From a virus: a stretch of 39,837 bases of DNA. The DNA is taken from UHGV virus genome UHGV-0025829, one strand, 5' to 3'. Made by a program: the position numbers and the translations under genes. How positions within the stretch are numbered: position 1 is the first letter of the stretch; the number at the start of each line of letters is the position of its first letter. Positions 6,099 to 37,280 of the stretch are shown here, piece by piece. Under the pieces are notes generated by a model. That model did not search any database, had not been told where the DNA came from, and saw only the letters and a list, made by a program, of their open reading frames with translations.

Positions 6099-6683
6099 TT
6101 ATTGTTTGTTTTTTTCGTTCTGGTTGATGACAAATTCAATGTAACTTTCGATCTTTGCTTTCTCGGTTTCGGGTAACAATGCGTAGCGCGAGCGGTCATA
6201 GTTGATGGTCGCAGGGTCGTGCGGGTGAATCAGTAATTCATAGCCGTGACGCCCGAATGCGGATGCAACATTCTCCAGGGTGGAAATGGAAACGCTGACC
6301 TCATTGTTTAACAGGCGGCTGATTGTCACCTGGGCGACGCCGGATGCGCGGTGAAGTTTTCCCTGTGTTGAAAGGTCGCGGCTTTCGCTCATCCAGCGTT
6401 CCAGGTTGTGAGCCGCCAGCTGACCTATATCGCTCGGGCCGACAGGCTGAAAACCTTCCTGAGAAAGCGAGCGATCGATATCAAGCCAGTTACGGGGTTT
6501 ATTGGCGGCAGCTTCAATTTTTCGCGCAACCTGGTCGCCGATAACCTTCTTGCCAAGAGCCCAGCGGTTTACCAGATTTGCCTGAGTTCCAAGTTTTTCT
6601 GCCATCCGCGTCTGAACACCATTGAATTCACGGTCGATCAAGTCGTTGAGATTTTGCCTGCGGACGTCCTGGATACTTTTCAT
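6099..6683 (-). CDS. Immunity repressor (CI-like), two HTH domains, no recognisable S24 peptidase domain
   Basis: Divergent from the Cro-like gene with operators between; HTH segments MAEKLGTQANLVNRWALG and ASGVAQVTISRLLNNEVSVSISTL; no Ser-Lys autocleavage motifs seen. Confidence 0.7.
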   Translation of the reverse strand: MKSIQDVRRQNLNDLIDREFNGVQTRMAEKLGTQANLVNRWALGKKVIGDQVARKIEAAANKPRNWLDIDRSLSQEGFQPVGPSDIGQLAAHNLERWMSESRDLSTQGKLHRASGVAQVTISRLLNNEVSVSISTLENVASAFGRHGYELLIHPHDPATINYDRSRYALLPETEKAKIESYIEFVINQNEKNKQ

Positions 6684-14875: not shown

Positions 14876-14952
14876 TGGCGTGGCATGCAGGATTCGAACC
14901 TGCGACCAACCGCTTAGAAGGCGGTTGCTCTGTCCAACTGAGCTAATGCCAC
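14876..14952 (-). tRNA. tRNA-Arg (anticodon UCU)
   Basis: Reverse complement folds as a cloverleaf: acceptor GTGGCAT/ATGCCAC, anticodon loop CTTCTAA, T-loop GGTTCGAATCC, 3-prime GCCA. Confidence 0.85.
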
Positions 14953-15274: not shown

Positions 15275-15289
15275 TTACCTGAAAGGTAA
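15275..15289. promoter_or_regulatory. Operator palindrome TTACCTGAAAGGTAA upstream of the virion operon
   Basis: Perfect motif copy about 90 bp before the 15380 start. Confidence 0.55.
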
Positions 15290-31668: not shown

Positions 31669-32082
31669 ATGAAGGAATTATTGCTGTTATCGGTATTTTT
31701 GATATCCGCTTGCTCGACATCCTATGATGTTTATGACGGTGTTGATAAGGCATATTGCGACAAAGTTAAAATGGATTTTTCTCTTGCCAAGACGGCGAAG
31801 GATAGTTGTATTGATCACTACGTCAAGACTTATACCAAGCCAGCCTCATCGGCATCTGATATTGCTGAAGGTGCTGTGTTTGAGTGTAACAAGGTGATAT
31901 CCATCGCAGCGAGTTCTTCATACGATGCTGCTGTATGTGCAATGGCTGAAAGAAACGGCATGTCAGTGCAAAAAATTAATAGCATGATAAGCAGTAATGA
32001 CGAAGCCAAAATAAGAACTGATATCAGCTCGGTGAAAAAAGATGCCATGAACAGAGTTGTAAAATATCAGTCATCTTTATAA
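31669..32082 (+). CDS. Lipoprotein (candidate superinfection-exclusion / moron)
   Basis: Signal peptide MKELLLLSVFLISAC with lipobox; six Cys in the mature part. Confidence 0.6.
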   Translation: MKELLLLSVFLISACSTSYDVYDGVDKAYCDKVKMDFSLAKTAKDSCIDHYVKTYTKPASSASDIAEGAVFECNKVISIAASSSYDAAVCAMAERNGMSVQKINSMISSNDEAKIRTDISSVKKDAMNRVVKYQSSL

Positions 32083-32098: not shown

Positions 32099-32122
32099 GG
32101 CCGCTTTCGCGGCCTTGTTTTT
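32099..32122 (+). terminator. Rho-independent terminator ending the late virion operon
   Basis: GGCCGC-TTTC-GCGGCC followed by TTGTTTTT. Confidence 0.7.
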
Positions 32123-32282
32123 AACGAATGCCACCGCCGCCCGGGCGGGAATCCGCAGAACGCCCACCGCAGCGGGAGCCGTCAGCGGCAGTATCGCTGT
32201 CGTGCTGACAACGACCGGCAAAGGCCTGAGTTGAAGCTACCAGAGACAACAAAACGAACAGTGCAGCAAATGCTTTTTTCAT
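32121..32282 (-). CDS. Candidate small secreted peptide (53 aa)
   Basis: Signal peptide MKKAFAALFVLLSLVASTQAFA; sigma70-like promoter TTGACG-17-ATAGAT upstream; weak SD; part of a longer spurious ORF in the track. Confidence 0.3.
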   Translation of the reverse strand: MKKAFAALFVLLSLVASTQAFAGRCQHDSDTAADGSRCGGRSADSRPGGGGIR

Positions 32283-32376: not shown

Positions 32377-32817
32377 TTATTCTTCTTCATCATTAAAAAG
32401 CGGATTGTTATTTCCATCTGATGAAAGGAAAGGTATGTGTTCTCTTGAAAATCCAACAATGACAATTTCATTATCATTTTTTGCATAATGAATGCATTCA
32501 TTAGAATGCATTCCGCCAGGGTTGAAATTTAAGTTAATGGTATAATTCTTAAATGTGTTTGGATACCATGTTGGCCCACAATGATAATGCCAATAATTCT
32601 CTTGCTCATAATTGTCTGAGCCTGGAATTTTATCATGGTTATCATCAACCCACGAGGGCTTGTTTTTTCCAACAAGCGCCCTTCCATTGGCAACATCCTC
32701 TAAAAACCTTTGTATGATTTTTATTTCATCATCAGTAAGGAAAGGTCCGTCTACAGCGAAAGGGGTGTTGCTTTCCCCATGTAGAAAACTATTAGATATT
32801 CTAATGTTAAACTTCAA
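32377..32817 (-). CDS. Hypothetical protein, AT-rich foreign-looking gene (146 aa)
   Basis: Asn/Ile/Phe-rich, strongly AT-biased codons compared with neighbours; no motif recognised. Confidence 0.55.
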   Translation of the reverse strand: MKFNIRISNSFLHGESNTPFAVDGPFLTDDEIKIIQRFLEDVANGRALVGKNKPSWVDDNHDKIPGSDNYEQENYWHYHCGPTWYPNTFKNYTINLNFNPGGMHSNECIHYAKNDNEIVIVGFSREHIPFLSSDGNNNPLFNDEEE

Positions 32818-32837
32818 GGAAAACTCCTGATGTGCTT

Positions 32838-33005
32838 CTATTTGGAGCGAAATGCCGCCTTGAAGTCGCTAAAAGATGTTCCTGTCTGGTAAACCATATC
32901 CTTGTCGCGCTCTTTGCTTGCGCGACCAAGCATAACTTTTCCAATGACATCCCAGCATTGCTTGGCTTGTTCATTGTGCTGAGTACGATTTTTCAACGCT
33001 GTCAT
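32838..33005 (-). CDS. Small hypothetical protein (55 aa) upstream of the AT-rich gene
   Basis: ATG 7 nt after AGGAGG SD; stop 20 bp before the next start; below the ORF-track cutoff. Confidence 0.45.
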   Translation of the reverse strand: MTALKNRTQHNEQAKQCWDVIGKVMLGRASKERDKDMVYQTGTSFSDFKAAFRSK

Positions 33006-33017
33006 ATCGCGCCTCCT

Positions 33018-33032
33018 TTACCTTTAAGGTAA
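33018..33032. promoter_or_regulatory. Operator palindrome TTACCTTTAAGGTAA
   Basis: Perfect motif copy abutting the SD of the 33005 gene. Confidence 0.55.
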
Positions 33033-33098: not shown

Positions 33099-33810
33099 TC
33101 AGAAGAACCCAGCTTTGTCGTTGATGTACTCCGCGTGCGTCTGGATATCACGCAGGCATTTACTCACACCAACGATGTAGCAGAACATGGTGGTCAGTTC
33201 CGCCGCCGCGCCCGATACATCATGCCCGTCGTCCTGCAACTGATTCAGCAGATTCATCAGCAATGAGTTCTCCGTCAGGCCGAGAACACCAGACGGTGAA
33301 TGAATCAGACTGCGGTAGCCTGGCTTCAGTGGGGCACTGTAGGTTTTGTTCTCTATCTTCATTGCCTGTATTACTGCTGACGCCGTGGCGTTGGCTACCT
33401 GGTCGGCAACCATCTTTATGCGTTCTTCCTGCGGGAGCGAGTTTTTAATGTAACTTCCGGTGCGGCGGATCTGAGGAAGAACCTCACCTGTAACCCATTT
33501 ACGAAAGCGGTAGGGGATAGTGCCTGGTGTCACCGCATCGCGGCAGCGGAGGATCAGTGTGTAGAGGCCTGACTCGGAGATGATGTTGATCTCTTTTACT
33601 CGGCTGTCAAAAATTGCACGATGTTCATGCCCTATGTTGAACATAGACCTTTCATCATCATCCAGTTTTTCAAGTGATTGGGTGACGTTTTGGATACGCA
33701 GCGCACTACAAACGTCTTGGGCTACAAACCATGGTTGGCCATCGATAATGATGGAACGGATAGGGTTAACAGATTCAAATTTGAAGATGGCAGTTTGAGC
33801 ATTAGCCATG
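33099..33810 (-). CDS. Antirepressor (Bro-N / Ant-like N-terminal domain plus C-terminal domain)
   Basis: FKFESVNPIRSIIIDGQPWFVAQDVCSALRIQNVTQSLEKLDDDE matches the Bro-N fold pattern; ATG at 33810 with GGAGAT SD; C-terminus paralogous to the 34125..34382 product. Confidence 0.7.
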
Positions 33811-33827
33811 GTGGTTATCTCCACTTA

Positions 33828-33841
33828 GTGATTTTAATCAC
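33828..33841. promoter_or_regulatory. 14-bp perfect palindrome GTGATTTTAATCAC at the antirepressor promoter/RBS
   Basis: Lies 18 bp upstream of the ant ATG, next to the SD. Confidence 0.5.
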
Positions 33842-33963
33842 CACCGCAACGCCAATTACTGGTGGTGAACTGGACAAGGTTGGCGTACCGGCCTAAGTGG
33901 TACCGGCGTCCTTTCGGACCCCTGCCCAGCCCACCATAATTCGGATATGGCTGTGCTTAACGC

Positions 33964-33988
33964 ATAAAAAAACCACGTCTGGCGTGGT
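33964..33988 (-). terminator. Rho-independent terminator inside the ant upstream region
   Basis: ACCACG-TCTGG-CGTGGT hairpin with T-run on the minus strand. Confidence 0.5.
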
Positions 33989-34078
33989 ATGCGCCACTTA
34001 GTAACTCGGGACGCCAATCCCGGCACTGGATTTTGCCAGTACCCGATTACTATGGCACAAGAGGAGTGCGATGTAAAT

Positions 34079-34093
34079 TTACCTCAAAGGTAA
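34079..34093. promoter_or_regulatory. Operator palindrome TTACCTCAAAGGTAA
   Basis: Perfect motif copy 32 bp downstream of the small antirepressor-paralog gene. Confidence 0.55.
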
Positions 34094-34124
34094 ATATAAG
34101 CACTCCATTTGGTAATTGCAAACC

Positions 34125-34382
34125 TTATCTGGTTTGTTTTCGTAATTGTTCGGCACAATAGTCGAGATGTGTTTGCAGATCCTGCATAGACATCTGTGAG
34201 CTGGTGACGTAGTTAATCAATGCAGTCAGTTCGGCAAGTGGGCCATCGACATTAAATCCATCCTTATCGAGATCCCGGAGTAATTTCATCAAGTGCGATC
34301 CCTCCACCAGTGACCTGACGCCTCCCGGCGTGTGAATCCTTTCGGTAAATCCGTCTTCCAGTGGATAGTGATACTGCTGCAT
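34125..34382 (-). CDS. Small antirepressor-domain protein (paralog of the Ant C-terminal domain), LexA-regulated candidate
   Basis: 85 aa from ATG 34382 with GGAGAA SD; aligns with the Ant C-terminus (HxPxGV...AELT...DxQTH); LexA box just upstream. Confidence 0.6.
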   Translation of the reverse strand: MQQYHYPLEDGFTERIHTPGGVRSLVEGSHLMKLLRDLDKDGFNVDGPLAELTALINYVTSSQMSMQDLQTHLDYCAEQLRKQTR

Positions 34383-34401: not shown

Positions 34402-34421
34402 AACTGTATATTTATACAGTA
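34402..34421. promoter_or_regulatory. LexA (SOS) box AACTGTATATTTATACAGTA
   Basis: CTGT-N8-ACAG with AT-rich centre, close to the E. coli consensus TACTGTATATATATACAGTA. Confidence 0.7.
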
Positions 34422-34458
34422 GCAAATAATTTGTTTGCTATCCAGCACGTTTTGCAAA

Positions 34459-34473: not shown

Positions 34474-34577
34474 TATCTGTTCGTATTTATGGGTTATCTA
34501 TCCATATGTGGTTTTTCAGGTAATAGAATAACCGGATATGCGGCGCAACGGGTGCTGCGACTATCTGGAGATTTAAC

Positions 34578-37280
34578 ATGACGGTCTCAACCGAAGTTGA
34601 CCACAACGAATACACAGGTAACGGCGTTACGACATCATTTCCTTATACCTTTAGGGTTTTCAATAAATCTGATCTGGTAGTGCAGGTGATTGACCCTGAC
34701 GAGAATATCACTGTGCTGGCTCTTGATACTGATTACACGGTGACGGGGGCTGGAGGATATACTGGCGGGAATGTTGTGCTGATGTCCCCGCTGGCCAACG
34801 GATGGCAGATTTCTATCTCGCGTGACCTTCCAGTTACCCAGGAGACTGACCTACGCAACCAGGGGAAGTTCTTCGCAGAAGTGCATGAAGATGCGTTCGA
34901 CAAGCTGACCATGCTGATCCAGCAGTGCTTCAGCTTTCTCCGACTGGCGCTGCGCAAGCCGTCGTTCATCGCTAACTATTACGACGCGCTCAACAACCGC
35001 ATTCGTAACCTGCGTGACCCGTCACAGGAACAGGATGCGGCCACAAAGAATTATGTTGATGGTCAGATTGTTGACAACACCAATGCATGGAAAGCCGCGG
35101 ACGTCGTTCTTGATAATAAAATTGACAGCAATTTTCGGCGCACTCTTAGGGTTCCTGAGAGCAATATCCAAGTATTGCCTACCATAGATGCAAGAAAGAA
35201 GAAATTATTCGCCTGGGATGATTCAGGAAATCCAATTTCTGTACTTCCTGAATCAGGATCTGCGTCTGATGTTCTTATTGAGTTAGCTTCCAGTTATGGT
35301 TTTAGCCTTATCGGGCAGGCTACGTATTCGCAGATCCGTAATTTCACAGGATCAGGTAACTCAATAATGTGCTGCGGTTGCGAAACACTTCTGGATGGTG
35401 GTCAGGGCATGTTCGATCAGGTTCCTGGTGGGGCAGTTATGACCACTCCAGACGATGGCTGTGTATTTATTCGCGATACTATTGGGCGGTTATGGAAACG
35501 CCGTTATGAGGGAAATGAGATCCTGATGGCATGGGCCGGGGCTAAAAGCCTGAAACAAACTTCGGAACCGCAGGACCCGGCCTTTAGAAAGTGCCTTCAG
35601 GCCGCTGCCTCTTTGTCTGAGTCAGGCTATCCGCAATCTATTATCCGGGGGCTGGACAACGCCACCACATACCTTGCTGAAAAGCACCATATCCGCTGCG
35701 GTAACTTCCCGGAGTACATGGCGTGGAAACTTCCACCTGACGGCGGCGGCCGGCGTTTCGGTATTAAAGGGACGTGGGCTCAGGGGTTAGGTGCCGGTTG
35801 GTTTGTCGTACAGGCTAACCATCCGCTGTTCGATTTCACAATCGATAATACCGGCATTGATTTCAATCTGGATGCGTATACCGATGAAGAAATCAAAGTC
35901 CTCGTCGAAGACAACTATATTTTACGTCTGGAGGCGATGGTAAATGCCCCGGAATTTAATGTTCATGCAGGCAACCACCCGGGGACTGTACTTTACAGCC
36001 TCGGTAAATCTGATTATTCAGCGGTAACCGCACAGTGGCCTGATTTGACTACAGTGCTTCCGTCTATCCAGAACGTGGGCAAAGCGGCGTTTAATATTAA
36101 GCACTGCGGCAGGGATTTCCTGCTGAAGAACTGCGGTGCGGGTATGGGGCATTTCCACTCCGTCTGGACACAGGATAACTCTCAGCCGGGATATATTTAT
36201 TCCTGTTACGACCTGACGTTGACCTATGAGGACTACGTCCCCCATACAGAAGAACGCGGGGGGCTTATTTTCGAAGCGTGCGGGACCCTGTCTCTTGAAA
36301 ATATCCTGACCGGTGCGGGAGGCGTCGGGCATTTATGCATCTGGGACTGTCGAAATGTGACCATCAACAAGCACGTCTCGATATGCGGCGCACCTACCTA
36401 CGCGCAGTCGAACCCGAATCTGTATGCCGTGGAAATCTGTAACTCTGAGCTGGCTGTCTATGGTGTGCATGCCCAGGGCTCTGGCAAGTTTATGCGTATC
36501 GGCTTTAACTCACGCGTGACGTTCTACCACACGACGGCGTGGGACATTGCGCAGATGATTCTGGGTACCAATGACCTGAGTCTACTGAAGTATCGTGGTC
36601 AGCGAGCTGCGGTCCTTAACGACCCTATTAAAGTATTCCTTGAATCTGGATTTGTTCAGTCTGCGAATACTGCAGATAAGGGCTGGCCTTGCCAGCCGCT
36701 GATCGTGTTTGATGAAACAATCGGTGGTGATTTCCAGCTGTTGTTCAACCTCGAGGCAAATAATAACCACTCAGGATACGATACCCAGCCTGAGGCGTTA
36801 CTTGCGCTGATAGATATTCGATCTACCAGTCCTAATGGCGAGGTTGTCTTGGGTGAGCAGTCAAAACTGGAAGGTAATACGACAAACTACGTTGTGCGGC
36901 TGGCGAATAAAAACCAGCTCAAGGACGTATTTACTCGCAAAACTAACTTTGTTCGCATCCGGTATACGGATGATAACTCACAGTCTTCCTTTGCTTTGAG
37001 GCATGCTAATCACCCACTTCAAGGTACGGTTGTTGGACGTAACGCGTCCTACTCATATCCATATAAGCGTCCTGGCTTGTACAGCGTCAAAATCACTATT
37101 CCATCCGGTGGTGGATCTTTTTCTGTAACGCATAACGGATTCACGATTTATGAACAGGACCAGCCTGGAATTCATCGTGTACTTATTGATCTGAGATTCC
37201 AGGAAACCGTGCAGATCACTATTAACGGTGGCGAAAACGTCACTATGACAAACGCCGAATGGCGATATTATGTGGGGTAG
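34578..37280 (+). CDS. Tailspike / tail fiber with T7 gp17-like N-terminal adaptor domain and beta-helix-type receptor-binding body
   Basis: 900 aa; N-terminus YTGNGVTTSFPYTFRVFNKSDLVV resembles podovirus tail-fiber N-termini; GGAG SD. Confidence 0.75.
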   Translation: MTVSTEVDHNEYTGNGVTTSFPYTFRVFNKSDLVVQVIDPDENITVLALDTDYTVTGAGGYTGGNVVLMSPLANGWQISISRDLPVTQETDLRNQGKFFAEVHEDAFDKLTMLIQQCFSFLRLALRKPSFIANYYDALNNRIRNLRDPSQEQDAATKNYVDGQIVDNTNAWKAADVVLDNKIDSNFRRTLRVPESNIQVLPTIDARKKKLFAWDDSGNPISVLPESGSASDVLIELASSYGFSLIGQATYSQIRNFTGSGNSIMCCGCETLLDGGQGMFDQVPGGAVMTTPDDGCVFIRDTIGRLWKRRYEGNEILMAWAGAKSLKQTSEPQDPAFRKCLQAAASLSESGYPQSIIRGLDNATTYLAEKHHIRCGNFPEYMAWKLPPDGGGRRFGIKGTWAQGLGAGWFVVQANHPLFDFTIDNTGIDFNLDAYTDEEIKVLVEDNYILRLEAMVNAPEFNVHAGNHPGTVLYSLGKSDYSAVTAQWPDLTTVLPSIQNVGKAAFNIKHCGRDFLLKNCGAGMGHFHSVWTQDNSQPGYIYSCYDLTLTYEDYVPHTEERGGLIFEACGTLSLENILTGAGGVGHLCIWDCRNVTINKHVSICGAPTYAQSNPNLYAVEICNSELAVYGVHAQGSGKFMRIGFNSRVTFYHTTAWDIAQMILGTNDLSLLKYRGQRAAVLNDPIKVFLESGFVQSANTADKGWPCQPLIVFDETIGGDFQLLFNLEANNNHSGYDTQPEALLALIDIRSTSPNGEVVLGEQSKLEGNTTNYVVRLANKNQLKDVFTRKTNFVRIRYTDDNSQSSFALRHANHPLQGTVVGRNASYSYPYKRPGLYSVKITIPSGGGSFSVTHNGFTIYEQDQPGIHRVLIDLRFQETVQITINGGENVTMTNAEWRYYVG

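Follow-up and report, generated by a model that had tools for sequence, protein, structure and literature searches.

The locus analysed here lies at positions 33,099 to 34,382 of the virus genome UHGV-0025829, a stretch of 39,837 nucleotides (nt) that we call, at its full length, the window. It encodes two proteins that share one domain, a large Bro-N fusion protein and a protein of 85 amino acids (aa), here called small Ant, and its closest described relatives are several phage antirepressor systems. In the immI operons of P1 and P7 the order of elements is a1b1 - c4 - a2b2 - icd - ant1/2, and P1/P7 heteroimmunity is a precedent for a shared repressor combined with different c4 specificity. 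The immA operon of N15, icd-antA-antB-antC, reportedly has a LexA-controlled promoter and a c4-like CA RNA (work ascribed to Ravin in 1999 and to Mardanov and Ravin in 2007); there, SOS and c4-type controls would act on one operon and one antirepressor, whereas the window splits them between two paralogs. In the epsilon15-like Salmonella phage SPC32H an antirepressor, Ant, is produced on LexA cleavage and inactivates the repressor, Rep, through protein-protein contact (PMC7380047); the mechanism of the SPC32H Ant-Rep pair is also treated in PMC9638917, with Ant tetrameric in the crystal structure 5D50. In the homologous isrK-orf45-anrP locus of Gifsy-1, part of the transcription from the isrK promoter passes a terminator and yields a longer mRNA that is not translated until IsrK, acting in trans, activates synthesis of the antirepressor, which induces the prophage; the paper mentions neither P1 nor c4 (PMC4825925). 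Overexpression of the Bro-N 'anti-repressor' of phage vB_EcoP_ZX5 (ZX5), ORF4, favours the lytic route, with a fall in lysogens from 1e9 to 1e6 PFU/mL (plaque-forming units; ~1000-fold) and a decrease in repressor mRNA of 75%; that paper mentions none of small Ant, LexA, c4, SPC32H or a shared domain (PMC9782041). The small Ant of SPC32H, the c4-controlled antirepressors of P1/P7, IsrK-controlled AnrP and modular Bro-N/AntA antirepressors are therefore already known. Our analysis suggests that the window probably holds an anti-immunity locus in which two antirepressors, built on one repressor-binding fold, are each placed on a separate signal.

The initial annotation of this DNA had proposed that the last 70 residues of a 241-aa antirepressor resemble most of the 85-aa product, and the resemblance is borne out. 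In a BLASTP comparison of the 241-aa translation (33099..33824, minus strand) with the 85-aa open reading frame (ORF), residues 160-233 of the former align without gaps with residues 2-75 of the latter (31 of 74 identities, 42%; E=3e-19). The Smith-Waterman score is 159, whereas shuffling the small protein 5000 times gave 26.9 +/- 4.5 (maximum 61; z=29, with a Gumbel p of about 1e-17), so that the similarity lies far above chance and a fortuitous likeness is ruled out. The motifs quoted in support are all present (HSPSGV/HTPGGV, AELT/AELT and DIQTH/DLQTH). The domain is thus shared as described, but about 75-85 residues are involved instead of 70. Both proteins match phrog_450 (large, E=7e-36; small, E=9e-48) and, by phmmer, PDB 5D50_E (large, E=2.2e-13; small, E=4.1e-47, residues 2-84 against 3-85), and these two ORFs give the only domain-profile matches in the whole window. 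Chain E of 5D50 is the 'Anti-repressor protein' of SPC32H, crystallised in complex with the phage repressor (PDB entry). By this homology the C-terminal domain of the large protein has the Ant fold.

The small protein is the closer of the two to the described antirepressor. It is about 88% identical to SPC32H Ant (85 vs 86 aa), and its gene, like SPC32H ant, lies next to the tailspike gene and is transcribed away from it; by these criteria it is the SPC32H Ant ortholog. In the initial annotation 'the' antirepressor was the Bro-N protein, with the small ORF as a mere paralog of it. The two-copy relation stands, while the status assigned to the copies does not, the small one being the experimentally characterised Ant. 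The duplication itself is ancient rather than recent, judging by the degree of divergence, because the two paralogs of one phage share 38-42% of their residues in each of three phages, against 54-88% for orthologs from different genera. The ratio of nonsynonymous to synonymous substitution rates (dN/dS) is about 0.05 for small Ant and 0.17-0.24 for the large C-terminal domain. Both paralogs are under purifying selection, and these ratios together with the identities rule out a recent duplication.

Control of small ant can be compared directly with SPC32H. The likeness to the SPC32H Ant-Rep system (PDB 5D50, 5D4Z; work ascribed to Kim and Ryu in 2013 and to Kim et al. in 2016) includes the same small Ant, a LexA box, the tailspike-side position and a homolog of the non-cleavable Rep, and the large C-terminal domain has the same fold. 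The box upstream of small ant, TACTGTATAAATATACAGTT, fits what we take to be the LexA consensus at 18 of 20 positions. Its core, CTGT-N8-ACAG at 34404-34419, is intact at the same position in six of seven annotated relatives, the Klebsiella phage having ATGT as its left half. SPC32H and its variant SPC32N differ at two bases in the locus, and one of these differences, C>A, falls within the ACAG half-site of the corresponding LexA box; Kim and Ryu are said to have found that a one-base mutation of the LexA box leads to constitutive Ant synthesis. The -10 hexamer of a putative small-ant promoter overlaps the box. A block, GTGCTGGATAG, and the LexA box are invariant in seven loci; the spacer is always 17 bp long, although its sequence changes. 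A consensus promoter scan did not detect the small-ant promoter, which is proposed here from its conservation. From the orthology with SPC32H and the predicted binding of LexA, we infer that small ant is the SOS-controlled arm of the locus.

The large gene is organised differently. Its start is almost certainly the ATG at 33809, giving a 236-aa product (MANAQ...), and not the GTG at 33824, because all close homologs are 236 aa long and the GTG lies inside a c4 target site and the Shine-Dalgarno sequence; the 241-aa length first given is therefore not retained. In Pfam the large protein matches Bro-N (PF02498) only (69.5 bits against a gathering threshold of 25.6; residues 22-117 of the 241-aa translation), with no match to ANT/KilAC or any other antirepressor C-domain model. 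In an AlphaFold model of the whole protein Bro-N is predicted with confidence and the C-terminal domain is helical, while the linker between them (residues 119-163) has low confidence. No LexA box was found between 33810 and 34124. Being Bro-N-fused, under predicted IsrK/c4 control and without a LexA box, the large protein falls outside the small-Ant class and shares only its domain, and in this it differs from anything in SPC32H.

Upstream of the large gene lies what we read as an IsrK/c4 riboregulatory cassette. The -10 of a promoter-like site ends 7 nt before the start of the isrK model match (34042). A match to c4-a1b1 (RF03163) overlaps isrK at 43.4 bits, under its gathering threshold of 46.7, the isrK (RF01394) and c4-a1b1 models together covering overlapping stretches of 33966-34055 on the minus strand. 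To judge from these matches, the IsrK small RNA appears to correspond to the leader that carries a1 and b1 in c4-type operons. Two c4 segments, CCACTTAG and ACGCCAA, have exact complements in CTAAGTGG and TTGGCGT, and both targets occur twice, in isrK and in the gap between c4 and the large gene; no further c4 targets were found in the window. The b2 copy overlaps the GGAG Shine-Dalgarno sequence (33822-33819) of the large gene, 9 nt before the ATG, which follows b2 without an intervening icd-like ORF. At its 3' end (33858-33870, minus strand) c4 reads ...GTTCACCACCA, paired with a 5' AUGGUGG in an acceptor-stem-like helix with a 3' CCA. This end fits the processing by RNase P that is reported for P1 c4.

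Our comparative set contains 87 loci: that of the window, those of six annotated records, and those of 80 IMG/VR contigs chosen because they encode a small Ant of 99% identity or more. The large Ant-domain fusion is present in 78 of these, seven have small Ant only and two are cut by contig ends. We verified c4 in 76 of the 78 fusion loci (72 by pattern match, four by Rfam), the other two, L011 and L023, having the layout of L009 and lying outside the scan. Rfam detects isrK in all scanned fusion loci, that is, the window and nine others. Neither RNA is present in any of the seven loci with small Ant only, and the cassette is therefore a discrete, all-or-none unit. Six loci have ~850 bp between small ant and the cassette, including in one (L006) an opposite-strand gene, and the promoter, isrK and c4 are all retained. 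In the 73 loci where c4 could be parsed there are seven b'/a' combinations, to which the Klebsiella phage adds an eighth, and the variety of specificities amounts to two a-types and five b-types. In every parsed locus a1, b1, a2 and b2 change in step with the c4 loops (with a G-U wobble in one b1 type), and 8-11 nt separate the end of b2 from the next ATG. This covariation of loops and targets lends strong support, at the level of sequence, to a functional RNA circuit. The earlier proposal that different promoters and regulatory sites give the two genes separate inputs is thus supported, with a LexA box at small ant and a separate promoter-like site, the IsrK terminator and c4 at the large gene.

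The cassette resembles two described systems. As in P1/P7 immI, a first pair of targets is followed by c4, by a second pair with b2 over the ribosome-binding site and, last, by the antirepressor. Unlike P1/P7, the window lacks an icd-like ORF, so that the antirepressor gene directly follows b2, and has an IsrK-type terminator between a1b1 and c4; its antirepressor combines Bro-N with the Ant fold and has no Pfam ANT/KilAC match, and it is carried by a 40-kb integrating podophage. The likeness to Gifsy-1 lies in a full-length isrK model match and an intrinsic terminator upstream of the antirepressor gene. The 'orf45' region of Gifsy-1, from which a processed RNA of ~80 nt arises, sits where the window has a clear c4, and the two presumably correspond. 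Unlike Gifsy-1, the window has no AntQ gene upstream, and its antirepressor ends in a domain that matches Ant of the SPC32H type, as would be expected for another family of repressors. SPC32H and the epsilon15-type Salmonella phages, unlike the window, have small ant alone, without IsrK, c4 or a large fusion.

The presumed target of both antirepressors is encoded at a distance. Its product matches 5D50_A over its full length (phmmer, E=4e-42), and Pfam finds in it helix-turn-helix (HTH) domains only and no Peptidase_S24 domain, so that a cleavable lambda-type repressor is rejected. Phages phiV10, ZX5 and phiv142-3 have a repressor 100% identical to the window Rep, which is 42% identical to SPC32H Rep. 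The window contains 15 copies of a palindrome, TTACC-N5-GGTAA (with at most one mismatch), where 0.68 would be expected. The sites are often paired, 18-62 bp apart, and adjoin promoter-like sites across the genome; they flank rep on both sides, two lie within the rep/cro-like intergenic region, and each promoter of the antirepressor locus and its flank has an adjoining copy (33018, 34079 and 34459). The fifteenth match, at 35993 inside the tailspike gene, may be due to chance. This distribution suggests that the palindrome is probably the Rep operator, scattered genome-wide as is that of P1 C1.

Small Ant is 88% identical between the window and SPC32H while the Reps are 42% identical, and for Tyrion the values are 86% and 78%. 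Conservation is thus far stronger in Ant than in the protein presumed to be its partner, which suggests either contact with a conserved Rep surface or free recombination of modules. Such lax pairing also bears on the idea that the main targets of the large protein are repressors of related prophages other than its own, which would make it a weapon of cross-talk or competition with an Ant domain tuned to another Rep variant. This we consider unlikely, even though the C-terminal domain is just ~40% identical to small Ant and evolves 3-4 times faster, and cross-talk of prophage antirepressors is documented for Gifsy and Fels (PMC3121763), since the identity of the C-terminal domain follows that of Rep at three levels (94-100% at 98.5-100%, 79% at 78% and 54% at 45%) and the lysogeny of ZX5 is lowered by its own Bro-N protein. 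Targeting of other prophages is moreover compatible with a locus of two antirepressors acting on one Rep, and not exclusive of it.

The initial annotation had also suggested a role in repressor binding for the shared domain. Homology supports this, through the SPC32H Ant-Rep complex, the matching Rep in the window and the phenotype of ZX5, whose Rep is 100% and whose Bro-N protein C-terminal domain is 98.8% identical to those of the window; we infer that the C-terminal domain of the large protein binds this Rep. The same domain, however, doubles as the tetramerisation unit in 5D50, and the alternative that it serves the large protein as an oligomerisation module only, with Bro-N acting on DNA or some other target instead of Rep, has to be weighed. 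The Ant tetramer, a model that consists mostly of one long helix, a Bro-N model whose top Foldseek match is the SKI/Dachshund-homology domain and which thus resembles DNA-binding folds, and the chance that the 12-14 positions invariant between the subfamilies are structural rather than interface residues would all agree with it. We nevertheless regard it as improbable, because four unrelated heads (Bro-N, AntA, ORF6N and Rha) are found on the same C-terminal domain under the same c4 control, because the Ant domain occurs only in phages of the screened collection that also encode Rep, and because the ZX5 phenotype is consistent with antirepression. In that collection of 50,697 phage records the Rep family is present in 37 and the Ant domain in 32, all of them Rep-positive, although these 32 are mutually related and not an independent count. 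Since the four different heads share one tail under one RNA control, the comparison argues that the C-terminal domain is the element that carries specificity; the heads are interchangeable. Mixed tetramers of the large protein and small Ant, in which the former damps or enhances the SOS antirepressor, are very improbable, for although both contain one tetramer-forming fold, their genes are ~300 bp apart and read-through co-expression is possible, co-assembly is uncertain at 42% identity, and obligatory co-expression is hard to reconcile with loci in which an insertion and a gene on the opposite strand part the two.

The family to which the domain belongs is sparsely covered by existing resources. 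No family model in Pfam, NCBIfam or PADLOC covers the Ant domain, a word-indexed homolog search with the C-terminal domain returned 27 proteins only, and an exhaustive profile search of 1.84 billion representatives recovered 66 family members at E<=1e-3. Most of these 66 are proteins of 80-95 aa; in the longer ones the domain is C-terminal, behind Bro-N, AntA, Phage_pRha or ORF6N, and the same head swaps are seen among E. coli loci. Because neither Pfam nor NCBIfam covers it, small Ant is labelled 'hypothetical protein' almost everywhere, and a domain model alone would better its annotation. Stand-alone proteins of 95 aa and of the large type were considered as evidence that the C-terminal domain acts by itself and were rejected. 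These 'anti-repressor' genes, annotated in many Klebsiella and Raoultella chromosomes (loci L089-L094), are 5'-truncated large Ant-domain fusions in decayed prophages, because homology extends upstream of their ATG and c4 is absent. They lie in decayed islands beside AlpA-like and HicAB genes, without c4 or isrK.

We therefore propose the following sequence of events for a locus with two antirepressors on one fold. Small Ant would be transcribed from the promoter that the LexA box overlaps, so that DNA damage, through LexA cleavage, would lead to its synthesis; Ant would then bind Rep dimers and remove Rep from its operators, and the prophage would be induced. Ant would be the SOS route because Rep has no autocleavage domain. 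Some transcripts of the cassette would end at the IsrK terminator, and others would continue through c4 and the large gene. In the latter case c4, released from the read-through transcript, would pair through a'/b' with a2/b2, and since b2 lies over the ribosome-binding site the large gene would be translationally silent, while the a1/b1 decoys of IsrK would titrate c4. The large protein would be made only where there is no c4, too little of it, or a c4 whose specificity does not fit, as may happen early in infection, on superinfection of a lysogen with another c4 type, or when IsrK is raised, and its Ant-fold domain would presumably inactivate the same Rep.

Several observations weigh against this reading. 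The C-terminal domain shares no more than 36-42% of its residues with the solved Ant, and the ZX5 assay, in which titres and not binding were measured, used a glutathione S-transferase (GST) fusion at 500-1500-fold overexpression (PMC9782041). The cassette is dispensable, as PAS61 has an identical Rep and small Ant only and the phiV10 reference copy is frameshifted. The palindrome at the IsrK promoter is centred near -44, a position compatible with activation as well as repression by Rep, and with such palindromes beside both promoters the two inputs are not provably insulated. A terminator scan also found no terminator in the stretch from the stop codon of small ant to the promoter of IsrK; SOS-driven transcription could therefore also feed the cassette, and the two inputs are perhaps not fully insulated. 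As regards phiV10, the Bro-N antirepressor gene of the reference (L001, DQ126339.2, 2515-3203) is frameshifted within the Ant-fold domain, as a pseudogene or through a sequencing error, and is annotated as a 194-aa protein and a 29-aa ORF.

E. coli phages with identical or near-identical Reps (98.5-100%) carry different c4 types. The cassette would therefore act as a second immunity determinant, as in P1/P7, and a resident c4 would silence only a superinfecting large ant of matching type. We tentatively suggest, as a possibility that falls somewhat short of being probable, that epsilon15/phiV10-like podophages may run a second, P1/P7-style immunity layer coded in RNA, in which the large antirepressor of a non-matching superinfector breaks resident immunity.

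Features of the antirepressor locus and of rep, with coordinates in the window
Feature	Position	Strand	Remarks
Large antirepressor gene, 236 aa	33099..33809	-	Bro-N 33474-33761, low-confidence linker, C-terminal Ant-fold domain 33102-33347
c4 targets	33819..33856	-	a2 (ATTGGCGT, 33856-33849), b2 (CTAAGTGG, 33828-33821); read from sequence
c4 antisense RNA	33858..33941	-	Rfam C4 RF01695, 66 bits (gathering 45), full model
c4 pairing segments	33900-33893; 33886-33880	-	b' loop CCACTTAG; a' ACGCCAA (single-stranded)
IsrK-like leader/small RNA	33966..34042	-	Rfam isrK RF01394, 63.5 bits (gathering 50), full-length model
Intrinsic terminator of isrK	33988-33972	-	stem, followed by U-run; terminator scan
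c4 target copies in IsrK	34018-34011; 34001-33994	-	a1; b1; complementary to c4 loops
Promoter-like site of IsrK/c4	34049..34077	-	TTTACA, 17 bp, (TG)CATAGT; promoter scan; conserved in relatives
Rep-operator-like palindrome TTACCTCAAAGGTAA	34079..34093		abuts -35 of IsrK/c4 promoter; in all loci arms invariant, centre variable
Small antirepressor gene ant, 85 aa	34125..34382	-	SPC32H Ant ortholog (by homology)
LexA (SOS) box TACTGTATAAATATACAGTT	34402..34421	read 34421-34402 on -	20-39 nt 5' of small ant ATG
Putative small-ant promoter	34416..34444	-	-35 TGGATA (34444-34439), 17-bp spacer, -10 TACTGT (34421-34416); conservation
Rep-operator-like palindrome TCACC-N5-GGTAA	34459..34473		upstream of small-ant promoter; arms kept, centre varies in relatives
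rep, presumed common target of both antirepressors	6099..6683	-	SPC32H Rep homolog
15-bp palindrome sites (starts)	210, 5965, 6027, 6739, 6787, 7124, 9070, 9132, 12115, 12133, 15275, 33018, 34079, 34459

The locus is embedded in a phage whose relatives are well represented. Over 1.9 kb around it the window is 97% identical to Escherichia phage HEMP4, and phiV10, TL-2011b, ZX5 and phiv142-3 have long stretches 92-93% identical to it; from these identities the phage is a phiV10/epsilon15-like E. coli phage, a temperate podophage with relatives in the genus Uetakevirus, epsilon15 group. A related locus is present in 534 of 5,426 complete E. coli genomes (~10%). The ant locus has late-operon genes on one side and the divergently transcribed tailspike gene on the other. 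Between the late operon and the ant locus are ORFs that resemble accessory genes, one of 137 aa with a lipoprotein-type signal (LISAC; 31669-32082, plus strand) and one of 53 aa with a classical signal peptide (MKKAFAALFVLLSLVASTQAFA; 32121-32282, minus strand); RefSeq loci L005 and L006 have a hypothetical protein of the same length (162-nt coding sequence) at the position corresponding to the latter. Downstream of the large ant (32377-33005, minus strand) are a 55-aa ORF (phrog_8607) and a 146-aa ORF (phrog_5954), neither with a match in Pfam, NCBIfam or PADLOC. This pair has its own TAATAT -10-like hexamer, an operator-like palindrome at 33018-33032 and a strong Shine-Dalgarno sequence. In other E. 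coli loci the same slot is occupied by a YafO-family toxin cassette, which suggests a moron site of variable content whose layout here resembles that of a toxin-antitoxin pair. In the gap between small ant and the tailspike gene (34500-34530), a conserved block, ATTCTATTACCTGAAAAACC (minus strand), includes one operator half-site; it is invariant across E. coli, Enterobacter and Salmonella relatives and may be part of the tailspike promoter. A tRNA gene (14879-14952, minus strand; Rfam tRNA, 73 bits) lies mid-window, near the operator-like site at 15275.

Only the pairing of known parts appears to be undescribed. We found no account in the literature that identifies the C-terminal part of the c4-controlled large antirepressors of this phage group (Bro-N, AntA, ORF6N and Rha fusions) as a diverged SPC32H Ant, nor one of a phage that uses the Ant fold twice, under SOS and under RNA control. 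Large antirepressors with Bro-N, AntA, Rha and ORF6N heads are annotated in very many prophages, and how they recognise repressors is mostly obscure. Here the tail is recognisable as the fold of an antirepressor with a solved repressor complex, and this gives a testable model in which the C-terminal domain provides target specificity and the head is generic. If the second, RNA-coded immunity layer suggested above is real, the SPC32H Ant-Rep complex would be the first structural template for a large Bro-N/AntA-type antirepressor engaging its repressor. The immunity-breaking weapon would then be the same Rep-binding fold, on interchangeable heads, that the resident uses for SOS induction. One lysis-lysogeny switch would thus receive two inputs through duplicated effectors, DNA damage by way of LexA and an RNA-based signal of immunity or infection state by way of IsrK/c4.

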